Below are positions 4,686 to 64,000 of a stretch of 64,000 bases of DNA, piece after piece. The notes under the pieces are model-generated. The model ran no database searches. It was given only the letters and a program-made list of their open reading frames with translations, and was not told the origin of the DNA. Each line of letters opens with the position of its first letter. Position 1 is the first letter of the stretch. This stretch comes from Octopus vulgaris (taxonomy: Eukaryota): assembly GCA_951406725.2 (NCBI GenBank), contig OX597825.1:18848001-18912000 (forward strand), read 5' to 3'. Both the position numbers and the translations under genes were made by a program.

Positions 4686-4918
4686 CTATTTCTTTACTAC
4701 CCGCAAGGGGCTGAACACAGAGAGGACAAACAAGGACAGACAAACGGATTGAGTCTATTATATCGACCCCAGTGCGTAACTGGTACTTATTTAATCGACC
4801 CCGAAAGGATGAAAGGCAAAGTCGACCTCGGCGGAATTGGAACTCGCAACTTAACGACAGACGAAATACGGCTACGCAGGTCGCCCGGCGTGTTAACGTT
4901 TCTGCCAGCTCGCCGCCT
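4686..4918 (-). mobile_element. SINE family A, full length, young tail
   Basis: Head GGCGGCGAGCTGGCAGAA, central GTCGACTTTGCCTTTCATCCTTTCGGGGTCGAT domain, tail ...GTAAAGAAATA. Confidence 0.92.
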
Positions 4919-5280: not shown

Positions 5281-5930
5281 GCATGTATGTATGTATGTAT
5301 GTATGTATGTATGTATGTATGTATGTATGTATGTATGTATGTACTGTTCAGTGATTAGAAAATTCAGCGAAAAACGTACTCCATCTGATGAGAGATAAAT
5401 AATAATTGGTGCAGGAGTGATACTGTGCTTCCCAACCACATGGTTCCGCGTTCAGTCCCACTACATGGCACCTTAGGCAATTGTCTTCTAATATAGCCTA
5501 CGGCCGACCAAAGCCTTCTGAGTGGATTTGGTAGATGGAAACTGAAAGAAACCCGTCGTATATATAAATATATATATATATAACATAGATTAACAACTAG
5601 GCTTACAAAGAAGTCCTGGTGTCGATTTGTTGTAAACGATTGAAAGAATATATATATATATGTATAAGTATGTATGTGTGTGTGCGTGTATATATATATA
5701 CTCACACATATATATATATATATATACATTGATAGATAGATAAATAAATAGAGAGAGAGAGAGAGAGAGACGATGGGCGTCCTATAGTTTCCGTCTGCCA
5801 AAATACACTCACAAGTATTTAGTCAGCCCGATGTTATAGCAGAAGACACTTACTTGCCCAAGGTGCTACGCAGTGGGACTGAAACCAGACCCATGTCTTT
5901 CGGAAAAAAATTTGTTACCACAAAATCACG
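4975..5930. mobile_element. Cluster of SINE family B pieces in both orientations with (TACA)n/(TA)n/(TATG)n tracts
   Basis: 4975-5140 (-), 5410-5640 (+) and 5770-5930 (-) match family B. Confidence 0.8.
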
Positions 5931-9165: not shown

Positions 9166-9540
9166 GGCTATTTGAAAACGTTATGAAAAAATACCGTTAA
9201 AAATGAAGGGAAATTACTCTGTTATAACTCTGCTTTGCCTGCGTACTTATACATCGCTCGCATTTTTCGTCATAAAAATTATATAAAAATACATAAAAAT
9301 ATATAAAAATATATAAAAATATATAAAATCTTCTTGGGACATAACACAGAAAGCATGTTCTATCCGTTTTCTTTAGGGGACCAAAAACGTAACAGAAATT
9401 TAGTCACATGTGGGCATGATCCGAAAAGCTCTGTCCTTGTATTTAGACATGTGGTATAAGTACGCAGGCAAAGCAGAGTTATAACAGAGTAATTTCCCTT
9501 CATTTTTAACGGTATTTTTTCATAACGTTTTCAAATAGCC

Positions 9541-18965: not shown

Positions 18966-19563
18966 CGTTTGTCTGTCCGTGTTTGTCCTCTCTGCGTTTA
19001 GCCCCTTGTGGGTAGTAAAGAAATAGGTAGTTCGTCTGCCGTTACGTTCTGAGTTCAAATTCCGCCGAGGTCGACTTTGCCTTTCATCCTTTCGGGGTTG
19101 ATTTAAAAAGTACCAGTTAATCACTGGGGTCGATATAATCGTATTAATCCGTTTGTCTGTCCTTGTTTGTCCCCTCTGCGTGTAGCCCCTTGTGGGTAGT
19201 AAAGACTTTGGTATTTCGTCTGCCGTTACGTTCTGAGTTCAAATTTCGCCGAGGTCGACTTTGCCTTTCATCCTTTCGGGGTCGATTAAATAAGTACCAG
19301 TTACGCACTGGGGTCGATATAATCGACTTAATTCCTTTGTCTGTCTTTGTTTGTCCCCTATATGTTTAGCCCCCCGTGGGCAATAACGAAATAAATATTC
19401 GTCTACCGTTAAGTTCTGAATTCAAATTCCGCCGAGGTCCACTTTGCCTTTAATCCTTTCGGGGTCGACAAATTAAATACCAGTTGCGTACTGAGGTCGA
19501 TCTAATCGACTGGTGCCACCTCAGCAAAACATTTGGGGCCTTGTGCGTAGAGTAGAAATGAAT
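18966..19563 (+). mobile_element. Tandem array of SINE A bodies (184-bp units) ending in an old-type tail
   Basis: Tail/body junctions at ~19025, ~19209 and ~19393; preceded by (TCTA)n at 18755-18965. Confidence 0.92.
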
Positions 19564-20154
19564 GTCTATCAATCTATCTATGTATGCTCGTGTGCATGTA
19601 TAACTGTTTTTCTGCTAGTAGCATTGTGACTAAGATGATATTTGCTTTACTAAACCGACAGATCACGAATGAAAACCTCGGGGAATCCAACTCTACTTAT
19701 AATCAATTATAGCACTCGAAAAGTTTAGAGGCCAGCCGAAATATTCCCACAATGAAGACGATAAGATCCAGAATTGATAGTAATGAAAGAATTAAAAGTA
19801 TCAATGACATCATTGATCGTATTGCTGTAGATTTTTGGCAGTTTCTATCCGTCCCTGATGAATATTGCGCAATAATTCTAGTGCCACAGCTGACGCTGCT
19901 ACTACTGCTGCTCTGCCGCTGCTACTGCTGCTGCTACTCCTACTGTTCCTATTGCTTTGAAGTTGAATTTTCGAATAATATCTTTATGATTCCTTTACTG
20001 ATAAATAAATATCGAAATATATCCACTGGTAGCCGATTTAGTATTTTTCTAGCAAAGAATCAAAGCAACAATGTTTCGCATAATACCACAGAGTAATCAT
20101 TTTATTTAAGGTCTGTACCCTTACTGCTCTGCTACATTAACAGAATACTTAGAT

Positions 20155-20914
20155 TTCTTTATTTTGGTCATAAGATCTAATATAGGACAGTACAGGACAA
20201 TACAAAACATTAGTAAAGAAATACTCAGCGAGCTTTTTTCAGTTGATTTTTCTTTTCACAAAAATATATTAAGTTAAAAATAGAGAATTTATATGAATAA
20301 AAATTTTGATTTCCTTACATTTTTTCTTGTTGATCTACTGTCCAACGGCTTTTTTTCCTTCTGGTAGATTAAGTAGGGACAGTCACTCCCAACTTCCTTA
20401 CCACATCCTTCCATCTTTTCTCATATATACTTCTAGACAGGTGTCTACTTTCCAGTCCTATCTTGCTTTTCAGGTGATACCTGAAGTAGTAAAGCATTCC
20501 AGGGCCAGAGATGAAGACCCCTAACTTCTTACCTTGTATTCTGGTTCTCCATGCACACTCTTTCATAACAGTGACTGTACACAGAAAACAGGCCTCACCT
20601 TCTTTGGGCAGTCCGGTGAGCGGTACATTCTTAATCACAGACTCAGCCGATATTCTTCCCAGATGTGACAACACGTGTTCTACGTAAATTGCCATCTCCG
20701 AAAGATGTTTACACTGTACAAGAGCATGCAGGATAGTTTCCTTCTCCTGTCCACCTCTTGGACATTCGGGTGGTACTGCAATTCCATGCCTAGACAACCT
20801 ATCGTGAACGGGTAATGCTTTCCTGAAACGCCGCCAGGTCAGGGAACTTCGGTAATTATCGAAATATCCCCACCGGAAAGTGTTCTGAAACATGTTGGAT
20901 AGCTGTTTCCCATG
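20155..20914 (-). mobile_element. 5'-truncated Tx1/L1-clade LINE with 17-bp TSD
   Basis: ORF 20369-20893 has the zf-RVT/CCHC C-terminus (ALPVHDRL..CPR..ETILHALVQC); TAACAGAATACTTAGAT at 20138-20154 and 20915-20931. Confidence 0.88.
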
Positions 20915-20960
20915 TAACAGAATACTTAGATAGCACAGATAATATCAATCTCTAATACAA

Positions 20961-21623
20961 TTAGTATATTTCATTGTTTACCTGTAAAAAGGTTTACATA
21001 ATGGGGACGTTACAAGGGCAGACAAGGGACATATAGGGTACAAACACGCTTCTTATATACAAGATGAAAAGACAGATGGATTTACATCTGGGTTGGGAGA
21101 TAAAAATATACGTGATGATTGGAAGGAATTTGGGTTCCGGTTCGTTATCCCTTTTGGTAATCTTTTTCATTTCTTTTATGTTCCGACCGACCGTGCAAGC
21201 ACAGACTGGAGCATTCTCATCTTTCTTACCACTGCCATCCAACTTTTTGCAAACGCTCTTTGCGGCAGGCTCCTCCTCTCCAGACGGATCTTGCTGGACA
21301 GATGGGCGGCAAAGTTATTCACCAGCCCACGTCCGGAGATGAATTGACCTGTCGCAATCCCTTTCGCTCGCGTCTTCCATACCACATCTTTCAGTATGGT
21401 TACTACGCAGAGAAAAGCTACCTTCTTTTCTTTGGTGAAAGAGGAAAGTCGTACAATATTTATCAGGGACTCGGACGAGAGCCGTACTCTTTCCGCATCC
21501 GACAACAGCTGTTCTGCAAAGGCCAAAGACTCCCTCAATTCCTCACAGTGTACGAAGGCGTGCGTAACCTTTTCTCTGGCACGCCCGCACCTCGGAACGT
21601 GGGGGAGGTGTTAATACCATGCC
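20961..21623 (-). mobile_element. Second 5'-truncated Tx1/L1-clade LINE
   Basis: ORF 21176-21538 is homologous to the neighbouring copy (SSESLIN, KDVVWKTR); possible TSD TCTCTAATACAA at 20949-20960 and 21624-21635. Confidence 0.82.
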
Positions 21624-21702
21624 TCTCTAATACAAGAAATAGAAGCCATTGTGGTAGTGAAATTCTAAACAGCATACCTTTTATCAATTGAAATGAAACA
21701 TA

Positions 21703-22123
21703 GGCGCAGGAGTGGCTGTGTGGTAAGTAAGTTGCTTACCAACCACATGGTACCGGGTTCAGTCCCACTGCGTGGCACCTTGGGCAATTGTCTTCTACTC
21801 TAGCCTCGGGCCGACCAAAGCCTTGTGAGTGGATTTGGTACACGGAAACTGAAAGAAGCCCGTCGTAAGAAAGAATATATATATGTGTGTGTGTGTGTGT
21901 GTTTGTGTGTCTGTGTTTGTCCACCCCAACATCGCTTGACAACCGATGCTGGTGTGTTTACGTCCCCGTAACGTAGCGGTTCGGCAAAAGAAACCGATAG
22001 AATAAGTACTGGGCTTACAAAGAATAAGTCCTGGGGTCGATTTGCTCGACTAAAAGGCGGTGCTTCAGCATGGCCAGAGTCAAATGACTAAAACAAGTAA
22101 AAGAGTAAAAGAGAGTAAAGAGT
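21703..22123 (+). mobile_element. Full-length SINE family B (tRNA head, CORE-like CCTTGGGCAA motif, internal microsatellite)
   Basis: A box TGGCTGTGTGG, B box GTTCAGTCCC, tail GAGTAAAA repeats; more than 10 copies in window. Confidence 0.92.
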
Positions 22124-22624: not shown

Positions 22625-22636
22625 TATATTAAATAA

Positions 22637-23033
22637 GGCGGTAAGCTGGCAGAATCGTTAGCACGCCGTGCGAAATGCGTAGCCGTATTTCGTCTGCCGT
22701 TACGTTCTGAGTTCAAATTTCGCCGAGGTCGACTTTGCCTTTCATCCTTTCGGGGTCGATTAAATAAGTACCAGTTACGTACTGAGATCGATATAATCAA
22801 CTTAATCCCCTTGCCTGTCCTTGTTTATCCTCTCTGTGTTTAGCCTCTTGTGGGTAGGAAAGAAATAGGTATTTTGTCTGCCGCTACGTTCTGAGTTCAA
22901 ATTCCGCCGACGTCGACTGTGCGTATCAGCCTTTCGGGGTCGAAAAATTAAGTACCAGTCAAGTATTGGGATGCATGTGAGCGATTGTCTCCCTCTCCAC
23001 AAATATTCAGGCCTTGTTTCTGTAGTTCAAACG
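22637..23033 (+). mobile_element. SINE A dimer (head + young unit + old-tailed unit) between (ATT)n tracts
   Basis: Junction AAGAAATA|GGTATTTTG at 22867/22868. Confidence 0.9.
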
Positions 23034-23125
<92 letters not shown>

Positions 23126-23489: not shown

Positions 23490-24240
23490 GCAGGAAATAG
23501 ACACCTCTAATTTTCAAAATCTTTTATTTACTACACAAAGCGAACAATTGAAATGTAATCGATAGGTAGGACTACTTACTTTAGTATTTAGTTGACATTC
23601 CCTTTGCTGTTTTTAATTCAGAAACTCTTTTTGGCATTGAACTGATGAGCTTTGTGATTGTCTCCTGTGGAATTTCTGCCCACTTTGCACGCAACAATCG
23701 AAACAATTCATCTTTTGATTTAGGTTTCTGTCGAGATTTTCTGATAGCTCTATCTAGTATGCTCCAAAGATTTCCAATTGGTTTCATGTCAGGAGATTGG
23801 CTCGGCCAAGTGCTTTTTTTTATCCCATTTTCAGCCAACCATGTAAGGAAATCAAAATTTCCTTTTTGATGTGTCGCATGGAACCCCATCTTCCATGAAT
23901 AAAAGCTCATTTTTCGTTATATTATCGTGTGAATATATGGGAAGTAGTCCTTGCTTAAGTATTTCGATGTATTTTTCAGAGTTTATGGTTCCAACACATT
24001 CGATCATCTCAGAACGACCATTGCTGGTGACAGCTCCCCATACCATTATAGAGATACCGCCATGTTTCACAGTTGGTTGCAATCGTTTCAAATCAAATTC
24101 TTAATTGGGAAGCCTCCAGACCCAAACACGTCCACTGGCTGAAAATAATGGAAGTCTGGATTCATCTGAGAAAATCACTCTATCCCAAAATGAACTGGAT
24201 TTCACTGACATCTCCTTAACCCTTTCACAATATCGTTAGC
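23490..24240 (-). pseudogene. Tc1-family transposase relic
   Basis: VIFSDES, PTVKHGGISIMVWG and WPSQSPDMKPIGNLW motifs; frameshifted. Confidence 0.92.
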
Positions 24241-24775: not shown

Positions 24776-25398
<623 letters not shown>

Positions 25399-25435
25399 CA
25401 TGTATAAGATGAGTAAGATATTTTAATATGTAAGC

Positions 25436-28819: not shown

Positions 28820-29130
28820 TAGTTTTATTTTTTTTATAGCGTGCTTTCACTTTACTACCGAGCGCAGCTCTGTGTGCCTTGGGTATGTGCTGAGATTTGT
28901 TGTGATGCTCTGATGGTTATTGTATGGAAAGTGTTCTGCGTAGGATGTGTGCAGTGCCTAGAAGTGCAATTTTATGTATGTTATATGTGTTTGTAAGTCC
29001 TGGTGTTTTTGTTCTGTATTTGTCTGAATATTTTTTTATCATGCCTAATGCACCTACTATGATAGGAATTGTTTCTGTTTTCAGATTCCACATTCTAGTT
29101 ACCTCTATTTCCAGGTCTTTGTATTTTGAG

Positions 29131-29134
<4 letters not shown>
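28817..29134 (-). mobile_element. R4/Dong LINE 3' end embedded in (TAA)n
   Basis: KYKDLEIEVTRMWNLKTETIPIIVGALG...LGTAHILRRTL* with 3' UTR; TAA repeats on both sides, the known Dong target. Confidence 0.9.
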
Positions 29135-29202
<68 letters not shown>

Positions 29203-29289
29203 TCATTATTATTATCATTATTATTATTATTATTATTATTATATTCATTATTATTATTATTATTATTATTATTAATATTATTATTATTA

Positions 29290-29353
<64 letters not shown>

Positions 29354-29503
29354 CATTATTATTATTATTATTATTGAGTGAGCGAGCAGAGCATGCCATC
29401 AAAGTGACACTGGGGTAAAATATACGAAGCCCAGTATACCCATCATGACTACCCGTCTGATAAGGGTACACCAGGCACATGCATCACAACCATATGTGCG
29501 CGA

Positions 29504-29972: not shown

Positions 29973-30970
29973 GGTATTTCGCCCGTGTTTATGTTCGGAG
30001 TTCTGATTCCGAGGAGGCCAAATTTGCCTTTCATCTTCTCGGAATATCAATTAATTTAGTAACAGTGGAACTTTCAGGACAATGTAATCGACTAGTCTTC
30101 GCGCCTAAAATTTCAGGCCTTGTGTCTATAGTAGAAGGGATTGTTATTATTACTACGTCATAACACAGTCTTTAACCGGAGTCTTTAGTCATCTGTCAAG
30201 TCACAATAAGGAACCCAGACAGATAATACTTTCCTTAAGATGTGCGCTGTTATTATTATTATTTTTATTGAGGCGGCGAGCTGGCAGAAACGTTAGCAGG
30301 CCGGGCGAAATGCTTAGCGGTATTTCGTCTGCGTTACGTTGTGAGTTCAAATTCCGCCGAGGTCAACTTTGCCTTTCATCCTTTCGGGGTCGATAAATTA
30401 AGTACCAGTTACGCACTGGGGTCGATGTAATCGACTTAATACCTATGTCTGTCCTTGTTTATCCCCTCTGTGTTTAGCTCCTTGTGGGTAATAAAGAAAT
30501 AGGTATTTCGCCCGTGTTTACGTCAAATTTGCCTTTCATCTTCTCGGAATATCAATAAATTTAGTAATAGTGGAACTTTCAGGACAATGTAATCGACTAG
30601 TCCTCTCCCCTAAAATGTCAGGCCTTGTGTTTATAGTAGAAGGGATTGTTATTATTACTACATCATAACACAGTATTTAACCGGAGTCTTTAGTCATCTG
30701 TCAAGTCACAATAAGGAAGCCAGACAGATAATACTTTCCGTAAGATATGCACTGTTATTATTATTATTTTTATTGAGGCGGCGAGCTGGCAGAATCGTTA
30801 GCACGCTGGGAGAAATGCGTAGCCGCATTTCGTCTGCCGTTACGTTCTGAGTTCAAATTCCGCCAAGGTCGACTTTGTCTTTCATCCTTTCGCGGTCGAT
30901 AAATTAAGTACCAGTTATCTGTCCTTGTTTGTCCCCTCTGTGTTTAGCCCCTTGTGGATAGTAAAGAAAT
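29973..30970 (+). repeat. Tandem duplication of [old SINE A body + Dong 3' fragment + young SINE A]
   Basis: 29973-30501 is repeated as 30502-30970; the junction is again AAGAAATA|GGTATTTCG. Confidence 0.9.
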
Positions 30971-31014
30971 AATAATAATAATAATAATAATAATTATCAT
31001 TATTATTATTAATC

Positions 31015-33257: not shown

Positions 33258-34464
33258 TCTAGGTTTGTTTTACCGCACAACAGCCAGTGGACATATCTGG
33301 CCACAGTGTTGTGTCGCCCTTTATATTCGTGTTGTGCGATCTTGCGGCACTCACTAACAATACGGTTTCTACTTTCTCCCTTCTCAGAACACATCCTACA
33401 TTGTTGCGAGTCACTGCTTTACTCCCCTTGACATTTCGTCTGTCTTTATGTTCTGAGTTCAAATTCCACCGCTGTTGACTTTGCCTTGGCTCGTGTCACT
33501 AACATTTCTTAATCATTTATTTGCTTTCAACCCAAGCATTATAATGTGCTTTTTCGCTCTTCCTTAGTGCTGTACAATGGTTCATGAATGTTCACGATCA
33601 CACGGGAATTTATAAAAGTCCACGAGAATCTATAAACGTTCACATTGATCTATAAATATCTATATGAATAATAATATCATTCCTTCATATTTCTGATTTT
33701 AGCGCTAAATAAATATTAGTTTTATCTCAGCTTCTGGGAAAGAACCTATTTTTATATAAATATAATGAAACAAGTATCTACGACTTTCACATGGACATTA
33801 TAGTAACTGAAGTATTTGATCTGTACTGGCTGTAATGGAGATTGCGCAGTATTTCGATTTGTAGCAAATTAGCATTTGCTAATGTTATCTTATAATTTAC
33901 CAATGTTAATTTTATAAAGCGAGTGCTTTAAATAATCAAAGATTTCGAAGGTAAGTGTGAATATAATTGGAGCTTTTACGACAGAATTTGAAGAGTTCAT
34001 GTTAATACTATTGATGAGGGAATGTGTGGGATGGAGAGATAAGACGAGAAAATGTAGACAGACAGAAATAACCAGATATAGACAGACAGATTTGGGAGAT
34101 TGTAAAGCAACAGTTGCACTCAAGACGTAATTACGTTTGAACAAATTCATGCCGTGTTTAAATAAATATATAAATAAAATCAACATTAGCTTTGGAGGGA
34201 AACACAATAATTGAGAAACGAGGCTACCAGATACCAGCAATAATTATAAACTATAAATAATAAATATATTGATGATTGCATATATGTGGTATGTGAGACG
34301 GGGAGTATAAGTGTAAAATGTTCTGCTGAATTCCGTGTCAACTTGTGTATCTAATGTCAGTCACATGGTTTACATTTCTGTGAGCATATACTTTAAGTGT
34401 GTTTGCAGAACGTGGCCAACAGATTGGTCTATGCTGAATATATTTGTAATCCTTTCATTTCACT

Positions 34465-34920
34465 GTAAGCAAAGGGCCTGAAATTTTCCGGAAAGGTGAT
34501 AGTGACTACATTAGCCCCAATACTTTGTATGGCACTTATTTTGTCGACTCCAAAATCATGAAACGCAAAGATGAACCCGGAGGACATGGAAATCTGAAAG
34601 TAAGGACAAAACGAATACCTATTTCTTTAATACTCACAAGAGGCTAAACACAGAGAGGACAAACAAGGACAGAGAAACGGATTAAGTCGATTACATCGAC
34701 ACCAGTGCGTAACTGGTACTTATTAAATCGACCACGAAAAGATGGAAGGCATAGTCGACCTCGGCGGAATTTGAACTCAGAACGTAGCCGCTGACGAAAT
34801 ACTACTATGTATTACGCCCGGCGTGCTAACGATTCTGGCAGCTTGCCGCCTTATAAGGGCAAAACGAATACCGGTAAATATTTTTCCTGCCGTGCTAACT
34901 ATTCTACCAACACGCTCCTT
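34465..34920 (-). mobile_element. Young full-length SINE A (34620-34853) nested in an old SINE A, with 19-bp TSD
   Basis: TAAGG(A/G)CAAAACGAATACC at 34601-34619 and 34854-34872; old head at 34873-34920, old body and tail at 34465-34600. Confidence 0.9.
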
Positions 34921-36629
34921 TAATACATTTATAATATAATTTCTTCACTGCCTCTCACTGAGAGTCCTTGAATCAAAACGAAATAGATTTTTTTTTTAAT
35001 GGGATAAAATAAGAAATGTCAAAGGTAGTGGAGTGCGTAGGCATTGAAAATTTTCCCGAATGGTAGCCATTAATTTTGACGCCTGAGCAGATGCTTTTGT
35101 AATTTTCTTAATCTTGCACGTAATTCTAGTTCTAAAGACTAATTCCAAATCGATTCCAAAGAGTTAATCCAGTCTGAATATTTAGACAGATCACCCAACC
35201 CAAACTCAAGCCAGCTCTCTGCTAATCCATTCACGATGTATCAGAAGAGGTCGTTATTATTGGAGACGAATTTGCTGCGGATTGTATTAGTGTGTGATTC
35301 TCTGTTGAAACCATTGATGACAAAAACACATTTTTTTTTGTATTTTTTCGTTATCAGGTTAGAATTCATTATATTACATCTATGGCTTTTATATTCTTTG
35401 GAATGGATTTCGCCTTTTGAAAAGATAAAATTACAGCATGTTATCGAAAACAAATAGCTTTTTCGGGTACTTTGGAAATTTGGGTAAGTAGAAAATTTGT
35501 CGCAGTTATTGTGATTCTTCTTTTATAACTTCGCAAACGAAATAAAGTTTTAATACTTTTTTGAGGGTCGGCCAAAAAATACGTTTTCAAGGTTTTGTAA
35601 ACAAAAGCATATGACAGTAAAACTTCTGAAGAATGGAGAATGCAATTAGAATATACCCCCATAATAAAAACACTAAATTTGTTTCCAATTTTTAATCATC
35701 CTTATAGTTTTATTTCTAGAAATAGCCTGGAAATTTCGTAGCTTGACAGAAGATACTTCGTCTAAAGAATTTCGATAGGCATTTAAAGAGTATTTGAAAT
35801 ATGATGTGAAAGTGTGTACTGTTACAAGAATAATAACTATTAAAATGTTCTGCAATTTATCCTGTATTTCTATCGTCATCATTAATAAATTAGAAGATGA
35901 ATTTGGTTTTAATTTCTATTTAGAGTTTTTTGTTTGATACTTCACTCATTATATATGATTATATTTGGAAAAATTGGATTGTGTAATACTTTTGTTCAGC
36001 ATTTCACTTATTTATTCATACGTCGATTGTATGATTCAGTATTTGTTTTTATATATATTCAACTTTTGACTCACTGGAATACCAGTCATCCGCTCTTCAA
36101 TAAGAGTTAAATCTAATTTTTTTCTAAGAAGATAAAACTCCATTTCACAGCCACAATTCTTTTCTATGTTTATATATTCAGCCTAGCCGTGATTGAAGAT
36201 TTTAGACGATTATTTTATATTTGTAATAGTTGAGAAGAAAATCTCTGATCTATTTACATTAGCATTATAATTAATTATAATTATAATTATAGCTGAGTCA
36301 TACTTATTTCAGCGAGTTTCAGTTGTGTTTGTTCAGAATCATTACAGAGTGATATGTCTTACTTTTAATCAATTTAATAGTTTAATAAGACAAGTAAAAA
36401 AGAAACAAGCCAAATGAAACATTTAAAAAATAACCCCTTGTAGTGAAGGAGACGATCAAAAAAAAAAAATGTCGTTGATAAGAATGGTGATTTTTATCAG
36501 ACAATTCAACTGAAAACTTATTTTGTGACGTAGGTTATTGTATATTAGCGTCAAAAAAACACACTGCTATCAATTTCGCTTTGTGCTTTGAAACAAACTG
36601 ATAAATATTTATACATCATTCCCTTTTTC

Positions 36630-43012: not shown

Positions 43013-43354
43013 ATAAGAAATATATATATATAGTTGGTAGTACCAATTATGTATAATTTTGAATCTGATGGAAGGTGAAATGCTGTTCAATGAAAATATC
43101 ATTGATATTTAAAATTATATCAGTACATCTATTTTTAATTACTGCAAATGAAATGACACAAAACAGCTTCTGTAACGAAAGTAACACTTTAATTATGAAG
43201 ACATAGACACGTTGAACAGAATTAATTCTATTGCGTCTCAAAATATTGGGTTAGACATTTAGAATGTGTTAACGTTGAATATGCTTATGCGTATTTTCCA
43301 TTGTGTACCAAAACGTTAACACATTAAAGACCAAATGATATTTAACTCTTTAAT

Positions 43355-43573
43355 ACTTTTACTCTTTTAATTGTTTCAGTCATTTGACTGTGGCCATGCT
43401 GGAGCACCGCCTTTAGTGGAGCAAATCGACCCCAGGACTTATTCTTTGTAAGCTTATTACTTATTTTATCGGTCTCTTCTGCCGAACCGCTAAGGTACAG
43501 TGACTTAAACACACCAGCATCGAATGTCAAGCGATGTTGGGGGGGACAAACCCAGACACAGAAATATATACAT

Positions 43574-43641
<68 letters not shown>

Positions 43642-43864
43642 AACGGTGGTGCATCAGCATGGCCGCAGCTCTGAGCTGAAACTAGAAAAGAAAAATATAT
43701 ATATATATACGACGGGCTTCTTTCAGTTTCCGTCTACCAAATCCACTCACAAGGCTTTGGGTGGCCCGAGGCTATAGTAGAAGACACTTACCCAAGGTGC
43801 CACGCAGTGGAACTGAACCCGGAACCATGTGGTTGATAAACAAGCTCCTTACCACACGGCCACT
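43355..43864 (-). mobile_element. SINE family B, near full length
   Basis: Family match; opposite-strand tail-like piece inside its microsatellite (~43645-43692). Confidence 0.9.
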
Positions 43865-46137: not shown

Positions 46138-46492
46138 TTTAAGTCTATTACATCGACCCCAGTGCGTACCCGGTGCTTATTTAATCGACCCCGAAAGAAT
46201 GAAAGGCAAAGTCGGCCTTGGCGGAATTTGAACTCAGAACGTAACGGCAGACGAAATACCTATTTCTTTACTACCCACAAGGGGCTACACGCAGAGGGGG
46301 CAAACAAGGACAGACAAACGGATTAAGTCGATTATATTGACCCCAGTGCGTAACTGGTACTTATTTAATCGACCCCGAAAGAATGAAAGGCAAAGTTGAC
46401 CTCGGCGGAATTTGAACTCAGGACGTAACGGCAGACGAAATACCGCTAAGCATTTCGCCCAGCGTGCTAACGATTCTGCCAGCTCGCCGCCT
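46138..46492 (-). mobile_element. SINE A dimer
   Basis: Junction at 46260/46261. Confidence 0.9.
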
Positions 46493-46739
46493 TATCGTTC
46501 AGCTTGCTTAAATTCGTTATGGGAAATGAGCTTCTTAAAACAAAACAAAACATAAAAAGATATCCACTTTCGCTATTGATGACGGTCAAGTAGACCTATT
46601 TCATAGATTAACTCACTATTGCTGGACGTGTTCAGAAACAATGTGTATATATGTGTACGTGCAGGGGAATTATACAGAAAAACCGTACACTTTCTCTGTA
46701 TATTTTATCATATCAAATTCTTTTTTTTTTTTTTTGGTG

Positions 46740-47370: not shown

Positions 47371-47410
<40 letters not shown>

Positions 47411-47482
47411 GAAATTTCTCCATATGATTTTTGATATGCCTTTCTAATTATTCTCTTTAGCTACTCTATTAAAATTTCCATA

Positions 47483-47645
47483 GGCGTAGGAGTGGCCGTG
47501 TGGTAAATAGCTTGCTTACGAACCACATGGTTCCGGGTTCAGTCTCACTGCGTGCCACCTTGGACAAGTATCTTCTACTATAGCCTCTGGCCGACGAAAT
47601 CCTTGTGAGTGGATTTGTTAGACGGAAACTGAAAGAAGCCTGTCG

Positions 47646-47733
<88 letters not shown>

Positions 47734-47922
47734 GTCCCCCCAACATCGCTTGACGACCGATACTGGTGTGTTTACGTCCCCGTGACTTAGCGGTTCGGCA
47801 AAAGAGACAAAGAAAAATTACTATGCTTACAAAGAATAAGTCCTGGGGTCGATTTGCTCGACTAAAGGCGGTGCTCCAGTATGGCCACAGTCAAATGACT
47901 GAAACAAGTAAAAGAGTAAAAG
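47483..47922 (+). mobile_element. SINE family B, full length
   Basis: Family match. Confidence 0.9.
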
Positions 47923-48072
47923 TGATATTTGCAAGTAATTGTAAAATATTTCACTTTCTTAGTTTAACCTTCATTCTTTTTGACTATTCGTGTATTATAT
48001 TTCCCTCATTCTATTCCACAAATTATATTTAACAATTTCCATGCGATTTTATTCTTATTTTTAGAATGTTGC

Positions 48073-50305: not shown

Positions 50306-50337
<32 letters not shown>

Positions 50338-50339
<2 letters not shown>

Positions 50340-50997
50340 TTCTTTACTACCCACAAGGGGCTAAACACACAGGGGACAAACAAGGACAGACAAAGGGATC
50401 AAGTCGACTACATCGACCCCAGTGCGTAACTGGTACTTAATTTATCGAAAGGATGAAAGGCAAAGTCGACCTCGGCGGAATTTGAACTCGGAACGTAACA
50501 ACAGACGAAATACGGCTACGAATTTCGCCCGGCGTGCTAACGTTTCTACCAGCTCGCCGCCTTCACACACACATATATCGGGACAGGCGTGGCTGTGTGG
50601 TAAGAAGCTTCCTTCCCAACCACATGATTACGTGTTCAGTCCCACTGCGTAGCACCTTGCACAAGTATCTTCCACTATAGCCTCGGGTCGGCCAAAGCCT
50701 TGTGAGTGGATGTGGTACACGGAAACTGAAGGAAGTCATAGCAACGTATATATATATGTATACATATATATTTTTTCTTTTATATATGTATATATTTGTG
50801 TGTCTGTGTCTACCCACCACCATTTGATAACCGATGTTGGTGTGTTTACATCCCCGTAACTTAGTGGCTCGACAAAAGTAATCGATAGAATTACAAAGGT
50901 TTACAAAGTATATAAATCCTGGGGTCGATTTGTTCGTGTAAAGGTGGTGTTCCAGCATGGCAGCAGACAAATAACTGAAACCAATAAAAGAACAAAA

Positions 50998-53096: not shown

Positions 53097-53654
53097 ATGA
53101 CAGAGGTAGTATTGATATCGAGAGGTAGTATTTACCCCCACTGAAAAAAAGTTATTACATATTCTTTGCACCTTCTTTGATTAAAAACTCAAACAACCAA
53201 TCGCTTAACTTCTTCTGGAAAGAATTGCAGCAGACCACAAAGAGCACACCACATGTATTGCAGGAACACAGGGGCTTCTTATTAGGAATTGTATGACACA
53301 ATAAATTCTGAACTTAGCATAAAGTAGAAATATGGACTAACGGAGGAGTATCATGGACTACTTCGAAAAGAAATGCAAAATGTGAGAATGCAATTATTTT
53401 CCTTTCCTGGTGGTCTTCAAACTATGAAAGAAAATAGTGTAGTTTGTAATAAAATCATGAGAGATATAGGATGTAAATTACCAGAATCCAAAATACGTAT
53501 ATAAATGGTTTCTTTTACAGGATGCATTTCTTTTACTTCATTTATATCGCTTATAAGATAAACTAAGCAATGTTCATCACACAATATCATCGTTTGTTTT
53601 ATTTATTTATAAAGAATCAATATATTTTAAAATGTCCTATATATGTATCATACT

Positions 53655-54076
53655 CTTCTACTCTTTTACTTGTTTCAGTCATTTGACTGTGGCCATGTTT
53701 GAGCACCGCCTTTAGTCGAGCAAATCGATCCCAGAACTTATTCTTTGGAAGCCTAGTACTTATTATATCGGTGTCTTTTGCCGAAACGCTAAGTGACGAG
53801 GACGTAAACACACCAGCATCGGTTGTCAAGCGATGTTGGGGGCGGGGACAAATACGGAAACACAGACACATAAGCACACATACACACACACACATATATA
53901 TATACATATATACGACGGGCTTCTTTCAGCTTCCGTCTACCAAATCCACTCACAAGGCTTTGGTCGGCCCGAGGTCATAGTAGAAGACATCAGCCCAAGG
54001 TGCCATGCAGTGGGACTGAACCCGGAACAATGTGATTTGTAAGCAAGCTACTTACCACACAGCCACTCCTACGCCT
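53655..54076 (-). mobile_element. SINE family B, full length
   Basis: Family match. Confidence 0.92.
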
Positions 54077-55775: not shown

Positions 55776-57295
55776 GATATATTAAAATATCAACTAAAAT
55801 CACTATTTCACATCCGACCCGTTTCAAGAAACGCTCTGTGAAATTTAATTCTGGATGTAGAAAACTTTAAGATCTAGGTTGGAACACAGATTTCTCTGAT
55901 AAAAAATTATCCGTGGAGCAAAACAACAGCAAAATCCATATCTTTAGATCTACGGTTGATATGTAAATGAAAGTTAAGCTATACTACTGAGACTACGACG
56001 GGATTTTGAATCAGTTCAGTATTTATACACATTTCACGCTGGGACATAACTTGCTACCGTTTATTTTATCATTCTGGATACAAAGAAATATTTATTTATG
56101 CATATATATTATCGTTGTAGTCACGATTGAATTTCAATGTATGCATGGCATCGTTTCCATATACACGATGCAGTAATATTTGCTTTGATCTCAATTTTCT
56201 TCACCTTTTCGGGTCCAAAGTAATATTTCATAGTAAAATATTTCACGTCAACGCTTAACGCATCGCATAATTTCCTAAACTGCAAATGCATCCCTAAAAT
56301 GATGCACTGAGATACTTTACTGATTTTAGTTTCATCACTGTAGTAATAATATTCTTACCAATTTTACACCTGAACATACTCTCTAAGCCTTTTAACTCGG
56401 TACTTCCACACTTAACAGGAGATATTAACACATTTTATTCTGAGATTTGCATTCTATCCACTCAATACAACGAAATATTAATATTAGATTTGAAGAGAAA
56501 TATTTTATGATTGCTAGTATCGAAATGTTCTTTCTTCCACACAGCGAAGACGTGTGTATCAATAATTCCCCTGTATATCTGATTCCTCTATGTGCTGCAT
56601 CAATCATCGATACATATTTTAAGTTTTGACTTGATATTTTATTGTGCAGTAAGATGATACACTATCACATTTTCCCATTGAAATCCTTTCAATTCACAAT
56701 ATGCAGTAACATATGTACATATATTATAAGACTATGTACGAAACTTGACACTAATTTCATTCAAAACGGTATAATTTGTGTTGATGTAAGATAGAAAATA
56801 CAAACAGCATTTCTGAACAAAATCTACATTATTTATGTAAACACATGATGATTGTAGATTTTTATTGAATAACGTTTCAGCGTTACACTTCCGATGTTCT
56901 AGACATAATAGCTTTCATTTATGCATCTATTACATTTTGCTTTCTCATTTCTTTTTACTCCGATACATGCTGGAATATTTCATATGATATCTTGATTTCC
57001 ATACACTAATAGTTAAGAAATATTTCAACTCAGTTTATCCTTACAGATTGATTCAATGGATAGATCGGACGTTTGTTTTCGATGCAATTCAATGCAACCC
57101 GTATACCAAGAACACGATGATCGTCCGATTAATTTGAAATAATTATAAATATAATTTTCAGTGAACTATATTTACAGTACAGCTGGTAAGCCCAACAATA
57201 ACTGCATTGTTTTACCTGACAAAATGCATAATCAGATAGATGGGAGGAGAAAGATCGTCCTGTTCATTAGAAAACCGGCACATAAGCGCCCCATA

Positions 57296-57731
57296 AGCGG
57301 TATTTCGTCTGCCGTTACGTTCTGAGTTCAAATTCCGCCGAGGTCGACTTCGCCTTTCATACTTTCGGGGTCGATAAATTAAGTACCAGTTACGCACTGG
57401 GGTCGATGTAATCGACTTAATCCATTTGTGTGTCCTTGTTTGTCCTCTCTGTGTTTAGCCTCTTGTGGGTAGTAAAGAAATAGGTATTTCGTCTGCCGTT
57501 ACGTTCTGAGTTCAAATTCCACCGAGGTCGACTTTGCTTTTCATCCTTTCGGGGTCGATAAATTAAGTACCAGTTACGCACTGGGGTCGATATAATCGAC
57601 TTAATCCGTTTGTCTGTCCTTGTTTGTCCTCTCTGTATTTAGCGCCCTGTGGTTAGTAAAGAAATAGGTATTTCGTCTGCCGTTATGTTCTGAGTTCAAA
57701 TTCCGCCGAGGTCGACTTTGCCTTTCATCCT
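57296..57731 (+). mobile_element. Headless SINE A tandem array (~2.3 x 184 bp)
   Basis: Unit starts at 57299, 57483 and 57667. Confidence 0.92.
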
Positions 57732-58292
57732 TATCGAAGAAATGGCATATGAATGGATGTTGAACGTGCACAGGTTGGATGGGATATTTGTGAGCAAGAC
57801 GTGTTTGTGTTGATGGCAACGGCTGCAAAATACTTAAAGCAATTAAAGTGACACAGGAAAATACAATTTCAGCAGGATTGACTTTAAGAAAGTAATACGG
57901 GAGGTTATTCTCGAAAGAAAAAAGATTCAATGTCTTGTTGAATGTTTTTGTTAATGGTTATTTCTCTTGCGTTTGAGGTATTGCAAGAGGATCCAATGAT
58001 TAGTTATCTGGCAGAATCTATTCGGAATGAGACTCACGGTAGCATGACTTGGACGTCAAACGTCACGAAACATCCCTGAGAGAGAGAAAGGGAAAGGAAG
58101 AAAACAGGATAAGAAAGAACGAAAGAGTGGGAGAGCGAGGGAGAGAAGGAAAAATAGAAAGAAATAAAGAGAGAAAAAACAAAGAAAGAAAGGGATTCGT
58201 GAAAATACGATTAAAATCCTGAGAATGTAAGGAATGGAAAAGGTAAAACACGGACTACAATCGTTTCATAAGAAAGCAATGCTTGTATGCGA

Positions 58293-58349: not shown

Positions 58350-58545
58350 CATCATCATCATCATCATCATTGTTCGACCGTGGTCGAGACAATGGAATTT
58401 ACTATGTTACGCCAGACTTCACGGTCCATCATAGCATTACGGAGGTCCTGTTGCTGGATGCCTGTATCCCTGGAGATTACATCAGGGTAGGAGAGTGTGC
58501 GCCCTCTGGTATTGCGAGTAGATGGCTTCCAGAGGAGAAGAGTAG
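58350..58545 (-). mobile_element. RTE-clade LINE 3' end with (TGA)n tail
   Basis: [31 protein letters not shown]-terminus. Confidence 0.8.
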
Positions 58546-58604
58546 AAATTACTTCTTTTTCACACACACACAAGAACACACACATACACAGACAATTAGA
58601 CATA

Positions 58605-61508: not shown

Positions 61509-62737
61509 TAGGTCCTCCCATAAATAATACGCTTTTTATATACATCTTTTATTTCTCAAAAATTAAGATAAACAAAGTTCTTTTTAATCTAAAATATATT
61601 CACCTTCATTATGTACAGTGCTCTTCTATCTAGTAGACTTGCAAGGAACCTCTTCCAAAATTCACTTGGCCGCGAGGAAAAATTCTTCTCTTGTACTGTT
61701 CTGACCTCGTCTATAGAATTCATGTTTTCTCGGTCCAAATTATCTTGAAAACTGCGGAATAAATGATAATCAAATGGGACAATGTCCGGCGAATATTGTG
61801 GGTGGGACATCGTTTACCATTCAAACTGCTCCGGCCTTACGAATGTCATACTCTCTGTATGTGGTTGAGCATTATCCTGATGGAAGAACACTTTTCGTCT
61901 CAAAAACAAAGATTGTCATTTTCTTGTAGTGCTGACTTAAGCTTCTAAAGCTGCTCGCAGTAGATTTCCTTTCTTATCTCTTGATTTGTGTTTAAAATTT
62001 CAAAGTGGACGAAACCTTTCCTATCCCACCAAACAGATAACAACTTACGTGGGTGAAGACCTTCTTTGGCCTGGGGTGCCAATGTTTCTCCTTTCTCTAC
62101 CCATTTTCTTCTGCGCTTGACATTGTTAGAGAGAACCCGTCTCTCATCACCAGTCACTATTCGGCCCCCAAAATGTTCATTTGTGAGATGTAACAGCAAA
62201 GGATCGCACGGTTAGACTCGCTAAGTTTGTAAGAAACACAATGACCCAATTTGCTGGCTTTTCCGATGGCATGCAGTGTTCGAGGATTGGTTGAATGACT
62301 AGATCCAAGCTTCTCTGCTAGTTCCTCAGCCGTTACAGTGGGATTTTGGTCCACCAGGATTTGCAGAACGTCCTCATCGAGCTTTGCAGATTTTCCACGA
62401 CGAGGTCCGTAGTTCCGGCTCAGAATTTTTGGAACCACCGTTGAGACTGGCTTATGTCTATTGTCCGATCCCCATTTATTGCATTCACATTCCTTACGCT
62501 TGCCTTTGTGTTGCCTTTATTGAACTCACACAGCAAAATATGCCGAATATGTTCCCTTGTCATTTCCATTATAGCTTTGAAAAATAACTGTTAAACTCGA
62601 ACTGCACTCTTCAAAACTTGCACTAAGAATAAGTCAAGGTAAAATTACTTCTTGCTTTTGTAGTAAGTTGATGCAGGTAGAGTATCCCGTCCCCCTCCGA
62701 TTTTTACTTCATGCATTGAAAACATCGCATTATATAT
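61509..62737 (-). mobile_element. Near full-length decayed mariner transposon
   Basis: HTH (TAEELAEKLG), RIVTGDE, LSVWWD and HPQYSPDIVPFDYHLF; frameshifts; TIR at 61509, other TIR partial. Confidence 0.92.
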
Positions 62738-62749
62738 AATACATATTCA

Positions 62750-63150
62750 GGGCAGGGAACTGGCAGAATCGTTAGCACGCCGGGCGAAATACTTACCGGT
62801 ATTTCGTCTGCCGTTACGTTCTGAGTTCAAATTCCGCCGAGGTCGACTTTGCCTTTCGTCCTTTCGGGGTCGAGTAAATAAGTACCAGTTACGCATTGGG
62901 ATCGATATAATCGACTTAATCCGTTTGTCTGTCCTTGTTTGTCCCCTCTGTGTTTAGCCCCTTGTGGGTAGTAAAGAAATAGGTATTTCGTCTGCCGTTA
63001 CGTTCTGAGTTCAAATTTCACCGAGGTCGACTTTGCCCTTCATCCTCTCGGATTCAATAAAGTTAGTACCAGTTACGCACTGGGATCGATGTAATCGACT
63101 TAATCTCTTACCTTAAATTTGAGGCCTTGTGCTTCCACTAGTGAGGATTA
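62750..63150 (+). mobile_element. SINE A dimer (head + young unit + old-tailed unit)
   Basis: Junction at 62981/62982. Confidence 0.9.
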
Positions 63151-64000
63151 TTTATGGAATATACAATATATATGTATGCATACATTCACACGCATCATAA
63201 ACCGGTACGCTGATTTCTATATCACTTGCATAAACGTGCACAAGGACACTTACACACAAACACAACACACACACATATACATATATACACATGTGTATGT
63301 GAGAGAGAGTGTGTGGGTGAGGGGATGTGTGTATATTGAAGAGCAAGCATTTTCAAATCACCCTCATTTTTAAAGATCAAATATAATTCCTTTGAACTAT
63401 CTCAGTACATGCAGAATATATGTTAATCTTGAATGCAACCGAAGCAGCGGCCATCTTCATCAATGGATGAATAGAAGATGCTTGTTCTGTGAGAGACAGT
63501 AAAATATACAACCCACATGCAACTGATTCAGATACAGAACAAAAAAATAAAATGACAAACGACACAAGGAAATACCATAGCAAGCAAGCATCGCTTAAAA
63601 AGCAACATTCTAATTAGAGATACGATAATAATCCACGACATGTAACGGGATAAGAAAGGATACTGAAAACGATTATAATAGTATCATGCGTCATATGGTC
63701 ACTGTCAAATTGAATTGATTAAAGCAGTAGGTAACCAGTGAGGTAATCTACGTCAAGGTGATAACTATCCTCAGAGCAACTACCGTCTGTTGACAAGAGA
63801 ATAGAAAAACGGACGAAAGATTACGACATTAGAAACCTAGAATTTCTAAGAGATGCCTTGAAAAGCGCCCTAGAGAGGGAAAATTCGGTGAACGGATGTA
63901 AAGCCTTTGATTAGTAGAAACATGTGCGCATTTGTAGCATATATATAAATATTTATATATGCATGTATTTGCTATTGTGTGTATGAGACAAACACACAGA

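Follow-up and report, generated by a model that had tools for sequence, protein, structure and literature searches.

The new analysis of a 64-kb window of Octopus vulgaris DNA (64,000 nucleotides of contig OX597825.1, whose positions are used throughout) indicates that a SINE lineage with a distinctive 3' end, here called the B tail, very probably prefers one fixed insertion site, and that this site is position 52 of its own family. Specifically, a target-site duplication (TSD), a fixed 3' junction at 7 of 10 loci and hosts of many ages together point to target-primed insertion at a preferred nick. The reading that we favor, with a probability of roughly 0.6, is that the B-tailed SINE is inserted by target-primed reverse transcription from a nick made by a site-preferring LINE endonuclease, probably of the L1/Tx1 type, at the family's GGTATT.

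The SINE family

A search with nhmmer gives 29 head/body matches in the window. Family members share a head and body of ~172 bp, which are followed by one of three tails, B (ending AAAGAAATA), A2 or A1; tail types were assigned by alignment, with one copy ambiguous. The B units are dispersed, short and non-coding, and 12 of them align to a majority 235 bp in length; all 13 tail ends coincide. Family positions 15-25 match an A-box pattern, and inspection by eye suggests a B-box-like motif at 79-89 (the strict B-box pattern has no match); position 52 falls between the two. ARAGORN and Rfam scans of the window returned 0 hits, and the fold of the B tail is no better than that of shuffled sequences (-4.9 vs -8.5 +/- 2.7). 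The repeat looks like what we take to be the dominant Octopus SINE; tRNA-derived SINEs of Octopus, in families named OK, OR1 and OR2, were reportedly described by Ohshima and Okada in 1994.

A TSD-flanked SINE inside an older relative

The insert at 34.6 kb is confirmed as a genuine TSD-flanked SINE inside an older relative. Read on the minus strand, 34922-34447 is an old SINE interrupted, after its head, by a full SINE that has a 19-mer on either side (Table 1). The two 19-mers, TAAGG(A/G)CAAAACGAATACC, are identical at 18 of 19 letters, stand 253 apart, adjoin the insert at both ends (offsets 0 and 0) and form the longest of three direct-repeat families in a scan of 34300-35100. Relative to the family majority they show 5 and 6 differences, against a single one between the two, and their next-best match in the window has 5 mismatches. 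Since they share letters private to the host, they represent a true duplication of host sequence, and mere SINE-SINE likeness was rejected as their source. Once the insert and one TSD copy are removed, the rejoined host aligns without gaps to the family head and body over its first 140 bases, with a score of 173 against a maximum of 72 in 300 shuffles. Over 117 columns the insert shows 11 differences and the host 33 (p=0.0004), which makes the insert the younger of the two.

These results bear out two claims of an earlier note on this DNA, namely that a 19-bp TSD surrounds the insert and that its boundary is the junction seen in the SINE arrays of the window: the TSD starts at family position 52, the very base of the array junctions. 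The note had also spoken of a young complete copy in an old SINE, which is accurate as to completeness and relative age and not as to absolute youth, the insert being the most diverged of the 12 B units (9.4% from the local majority, against 3.2-7.1% for the others). The nested structure that it placed at 34465..34920 is likewise present, with the tail of the host continuing to ~34447.

The locus was compared with four (X4, X15, X17 and X20) of 24 listed sequencing runs, all four of which contain the SINE family and the B tail. In the distant runs X15, X17 and X20 the orthologous piece covers only 34000-34266 and not the insertion site. Contigs from X4 enter the insert by 24 and 28 letters, relative to a bar of 31 letters, and the comparison suggests that X4 shares the insertion. 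No contig joint that skips the insert occurs among the 15 joints listed of 414, and no empty orthologous site was seen in the four runs. Searches for two tail patterns and for one body pattern gave 0 loci in collections of genome, viral and metagenome contigs. Separately, the depth of the B tail relative to the body (34612-34662) is higher in X4 than in X15, X17 and X20, which is a weak hint of lineage-specific B expansion and not a measure of copy number.

Table 1 SINE copies, arrays and LINE fragments described in the text
Feature	Position	Strand	Remarks
Old host SINE, 5' head (34.6 kb)	34873..34922	-	family positions 2-51; alignment to family head
Upstream TSD copy	34854..34872	-	19 bp; begins GGTATT at family position 52
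Inserted full-length SINE with B tail	34620..34853	-	234 bp; 9.4% from local majority
B tail of insert	34620..34682	-	ends AAAGAAATA; resembles 3' UTR of L1/Tx1-type LINE in window
Downstream TSD copy	34601..34619	-	
Rest of old host	34447..34600	-	body and A2-type tail; ~28% from B majority
Duplication, first copy (30 kb)	29973..30270	+	298 bp, beginning at position 52 of another old host; 5.1% from twin
Full-length B copy	30271..30501	+	tail meets host at position 52; 5' junction same as in next B copy (30776)
Duplication, second copy	30502..30775	+	24-bp deletion
Off-site B copy	30776..30971	+	ends in (ATA)n; internal 36-bp deletion
Array	18966..19570	+	B tail, two 184-bp B units, older A2-tailed host (join within 1 bp of position 52)
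Headed B unit	22633..23040	+	joined at position 52 to older A2-tailed host, without short TSD
Headed B unit	46139..46495	-	joined at position 52 to second body
Array	57299..57732	+	2.4 units of 184 bp
Headed B unit	62750..63158	+	joined at position 52 to A2-tailed host
Off-site full-length B copy	50337..50563	-	15-bp TSD, in (TA)n/(TG)n microsatellite
Off-site full-length B copy	4687..4918	-	followed by GGAATAAC; no TSD found
L1a, 5'-truncated L1/Tx1-type LINE	20961..21623	-	12-bp exact TSD; 3' UTR is best non-SINE match to B tail
L1b, 5'-truncated L1/Tx1-type LINE	20155..20914	-	zf-RVT domain; 17-bp exact TSD; ends AATAAAGAA like B tail

One preferred site

Across the window, 10 of 13 B-tail ends (7 of 10 loci) run into a SINE body at position 52, one of them within 1 bp, and the remaining three lie off-site, followed by GGAATAAC, (ATA)n and (TA)n. 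The chance that a single insertion hits that base is ~2.1e-4 (~27/128000), itself an overestimate because the insertions add family copies of their own, which gives 2e-3 for an exact hit at one or more of 10 loci and ~2e-6 for two. A chance nested insertion, for which one could cite the density of the family (the 29 nhmmer hits in 64 kb) and the fact that the locus was picked by eye once arrays had been noticed, is by these figures rejected and deemed extremely improbable. The window contains 44 GGTATT sites, of which 14 are in SINE register; all 8 B-tail/GGTATT junctions fall among these, whereas none of the other 30 GGTATT sites carries a B tail.

The site is preferred rather than obligatory. 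Two full-length B copies in the window have a clear short TSD, the one on-site at 34.6 kb and the other off-site (50563-50337), and the latter, with its own 15-bp TSD, makes targeting a preference and not a rule. TATT at positions ~54-57 is found in 5/5 interrupted A-tailed hosts vs 0/6 uninterrupted A copies (p=0.002), a split that also separates the tail subfamilies, A2 being hit and A1 not, and that could reflect age or subfamily. In the listed joints of the sequencing runs, three tail-to-body joints appear among 12 of 445 rows, one exactly in register, one 1 short and one 12 short, and the first of these, from X4, connects the B tail with body position 68 by way of exactly 16 host letters, which start with TA and not GG. 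With 7 of 10 loci, the window exceeds the level of more than 20% of copies beside one target that serves as criterion in PMC4494074. As a separate observation, four headed B copies (4870, 22684, 30824 and 50514), including all three off-site ones, have C in place of G at position 52, possibly a target-escape variant, with n being small.

Could the junction have been spread ready-made by a dimeric element? Divergence is 15.1-42.2% among the six bodies that follow B tails and 4.2-13.4% among the six B units that precede these bodies (15 pairs each; the 57-kb array was omitted because its last unit is 66 bp long), which rejects a single dimeric master. Of nine adjacent pairs, the downstream half is significantly older than the upstream one in four, borderline in one (p=0.07), no different in three and reversed in one (19026 vs 19210, p=0.04). 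A looser version, in which one or a few dimeric or multimeric masters of the form head-body-B tail-body spread the junction and the TSD locus is a chance or separate hit, appears improbable. It can point to the halves at 46 kb and 57 kb, which are equally young (p=0.38 and 1.0), and to one private letter that 46495 and 46260 have in common, and that minority of loci may indeed be dimer-derived. The downstream halves are, however, 15-42% apart with few variants in common, and the two loci with a host twin are separate insertions that struck the same base as the founder (p ~2e-6 for two of 10). Independence from one hitchhiking master is thereby indicated by hosts 15-42% apart together with the two loci at which a host twin proves it, 34.6 kb and 30.5 kb. 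As such, the earlier claim of a fixed site, over chance, a dimeric master or unequal crossover, finds support in the in-register junctions and the divergence of the bodies.

Near the 57-kb array, a decayed SINE head is visible upstream at 57264-57298 (+), ~6 bp out of register and with a short ATAAGCG repeat; the last unit of the array ends at about position 117-125.

Endonuclease or RNA

A preferred site might be chosen by the enzyme that nicks the DNA or by the RNA that is copied there. Where an independent copy of the host exists, letters of host type appear by position 58 (34.6 kb) and 61 (30.5 kb), which places the junctions within 52-57 and 52-60, respectively. The simplest reading is a site-specific nick, with help from read-through RNA also possible, and we consider it reasonably likely that an endonuclease defines the site at position 52.

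Alternatively, B copies in arrays might be read through into GGTATTT and beyond, with the 3' extension of the RNA pairing with nicked family DNA and priming in register, so that the endonuclease would need little specificity. This explanation is unlikely, if not without substance: exact GGTATT comes directly after 8 of 13 B tails, the lack of a TTTT run in the B majority makes Pol III read-through plausible, and co-transcription with the target can strengthen targeting, according to the available text of PMC4494074. Against it stands the closeness of the host-type letters, which are reached after no more than 6 and 9 bases at the two loci open to this test (p ~0.004 for a junction free to fall anywhere in the body). 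Furthermore, the hexamer alone predicts that about two-thirds of hits lie out of SINE register, and 0 of 8 do, with p ~0.1 if only the 2 proven-independent loci are counted, 0.01 for 4 and 3e-4 for 7; and two junctions, at 19393 and in the X4 joint, lack GG altogether. The endonuclease target put forward in the earlier note holds up in so far as the site is fixed, and less fully in making the endonuclease the sole chooser, since the 3' end of the RNA could supply up to six matching letters (GGTATT).

Joining of the 5' end

At 30 kb, a 298-bp duplication brackets a full B copy and ends at the start of the next B copy (30776). The stretch 29973-30775 looks like a TSD whose geometry has been stretched to 298 bp, as if the 5' end had been joined at the neighboring B head. 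The available portion of bioRxiv 2024.08.27.596794 cites L1 cDNA as pairing with homologous DNA close by. The two B copies differ by 8.2% and the duplicated flank by 5.1% (p=0.19), and by divergence a DNA-level duplication may also account for the locus; it would need breakpoints at the tail end and at position 52 without shared letters.

The broader explanation of this kind, in which unequal crossover or local duplication built the arrays and the 30-kb duplication while retrotransposition had no site preference, is highly unlikely. Unequal recombination is the usual model of SINE arrays in the available texts of PMC11481361 and PMC10702118, the divergence at 30 kb agrees with it, and the units at 57 kb are only 6.5% apart. 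Crossover between SINE copies, however, joins homologous positions and makes no fresh junction between a tail and position 52; the 30-kb junction has no shared letters, the 19-kb units are 13% apart, like unrelated copies, and the full-length TSD-flanked copy is left unexplained.

Both hosts that lie ~28% from the majority carry visible duplications, whereas hosts at 7-17% carry none and are joined in register. That duplications are confined to ~28%-diverged hosts fits the idea that the 5' end is resolved by homology with the host. The same end product would arise if a normal TSD insertion left a ~70-bp direct repeat (host head and TSD, then new head) that can collapse later: collapse between host head and new head also depends on host similarity and gives the same sequence as resolution at insertion. 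A test for hidden TSDs, seen as private letters common to adjacent units, was positive in only 1 of 9 pairs and gives no support to homologous resolution. The earlier proposal that a diverged host leaves a normal TSD through failed homologous 5' resolution holds as a pattern by host divergence; as a process at work during insertion it is one of two routes that yield the same sequence, later collapse being the other.

Under the favored reading of target-primed insertion at the preferred nick, the partner LINE would bind the B tail and make a bottom-strand nick at family position 52-57, a stretch with the A-box-like motif on one side and the B-box-like motif on the other. In a very diverged host, joining of the 5' end would leave a plain TSD, as at 34.6 kb; joining at a homologous copy nearby would duplicate the intervening DNA (298 bp at 30 kb); and a 5' end that comes to lie in register with the head of the host, whether during insertion or through a subsequent collapse, would add exactly one 184-bp unit. 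Repeated insertion at the regenerated GGTATT junction could then build arrays, with read-through RNA that matches the target as a possible help rather than a requirement. A bolder extension, which we put forward as tentative and short of an even chance, is a SINE that homes to itself: the Tx1-type endonuclease of the partner would recognize the family's own head between the promoter boxes, and the B lineage would have taken over nearly all older GGTATT-bearing copies (5/5 A2-tailed ones here), keeping their A box, giving them the B tail and building 184-bp arrays by repeated insertion, while C52 variants, among them all three off-site copies, would be immune to their own machinery.

A candidate partner LINE

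Judged from sequence comparison, the partner is probably an L1/Tx1-type LINE. The B tail and the 3' UTR of L1a are nearly co-terminal, with a match score of 37 that was reached in 0/1000 shuffles and lies only 1 point above the next match in the window (36), both being TGTC-rich; the match ends ~6 bases before the TSD of L1a. The two LINE fragments have 43% protein identity, and those in the window contain no RT. For L1b, a word-based search gives no homologues and HMMER finds 137, among which full-length cluster members carry zf-RVT along with an APE endonuclease and RT; the cluster names point to no clade or host. We take this domain set to be the L1/Tx1 layout, a clade label based on the domain order of the relatives. 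Neither fragment lies inside a SINE, and both TSDs contain GTATT at offsets other than that of the SINE site; as neither sits in a SINE, they are at most relatives of the partner. L1a and L1b stand ~30 bp apart in the same orientation (20138-21635, (-)), a possible hot spot.

Another LINE shares a shorter word with the B tail, namely the presumably R4/Dong-like 3' UTR at 28917 (score 21, 1/1000 shuffles). It belongs to the 3' end of an RLE-type LINE at 28905-29500 (-), the frame of which is broken by a long (AAT)n tract. The fragment 28917-29135 has 175 homologues, and no cephalopod name appears among the 120 of them listed.

Relation to known elements

The closest parallel is the SINEU-3/Tx1-Mar system of crocodilians, in which SINEU-3, according to the available text of PMC4494074, inserts at a fixed place in a Mariner transposon with a 16-bp TSD, forms tandem copies by sequential insertion, is flanked by its target in 313 of 347 copies and is mobilized, as that source infers, by Tx1-clade LINEs. 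The Octopus SINE, likewise, is aimed at a fixed place in an abundant repeat, makes a TSD and forms tandem copies. As far as the same text goes, SINEU-3 targets an unrelated DNA transposon, whereas the Octopus SINE targets its own family in the same orientation; tandem SINEU-3 copies sandwich the TSD, whereas in the Octopus arrays the head is lost and the repeated unit is exactly 184 bp; and a LINE with the same target is demonstrated for SINEU-3, whereas the Octopus partner is only a candidate. No U1- or U2-derived head, the mark of SINEU proper, was found, with no Rfam match reaching the gathering score in the window. The Octopus repeat works like SINEU-3 but is no SINEU.

Other elements share parts of this behavior. 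Tx1 of Xenopus, Keno, Kibi and Koshi belong to the Tx1 clade and have an endonuclease with a preference for a repeated target (a DNA transposon, U2 genes or microsatellites); they are autonomous LINEs, however, and none is described as targeting a SINE in the available text of PMC4494074. The R2 and R1 SIDEs are likewise non-autonomous and bound to a fixed site, with a 14-bp TSD in R1-site copies, but differ in that their target is rDNA and that they derive from the LINE itself, as the accessible part of PMC3414825 describes. Squamate SINE-derived satellites and bivalve SINE arrays also consist of tandemly arrayed SINE parts; what is available of PMC10702118 and PMC11481361 explains them mainly by unequal recombination and reports no fixed insertion site. 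In O. vulgaris itself, L1-Tx1 (13 families) and Dong-R4 (5) LINEs have been recently active, and one annotation lists 893 unclassified SINE families among recent insertions, according to the available text of PMC13282606.

No description of SINE self-targeting of this kind was found in the literature searched, the scope of which ended short of subscription papers and Repbase/Dfam. The comparison suggests that target-specific SINEs and SINE arrays are known and that the use of a SINE's own family as the target may be new. Should this reading hold, a highly abundant animal SINE would be landing safely in older copies of itself, and dispersed SINEs would have a route into tandem arrays through repeated retrotransposition, in contrast to the usual unequal crossover. 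A SINE would join the known targets of sequence-specific non-LTR elements, and the system would point to a natural endonuclease whose target can be defined. Libraries of repeats and estimates of their age would also be distorted, since chimeric copies of head, body and tail could be split into many "families".

Other repeats in the window

A second abundant SINE-like family is present at 2200-2500, 5400-5900, 21700-22100, 24800-25400, 43300-43800, 47400-48000 and 53600-54000, and one of its copies seems to interrupt the 46-kb unit near position 173. The stretch 58367-58600 (-) resembles by eye a C-terminal piece of an RTE-type LINE and has no Pfam hit, while 23581-23916 (-) and 62157-62516 (-) hold Tc1/mariner transposase fragments with weak DDE_3 and HTH hits under curated cut-offs. 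Near-identical local duplicates lie in direct orientation at ~13300-13500/14500-14700 and 49490/52020, and a near-identical pair on opposite strands, at 9195/9511, is perhaps an inverted-repeat element.
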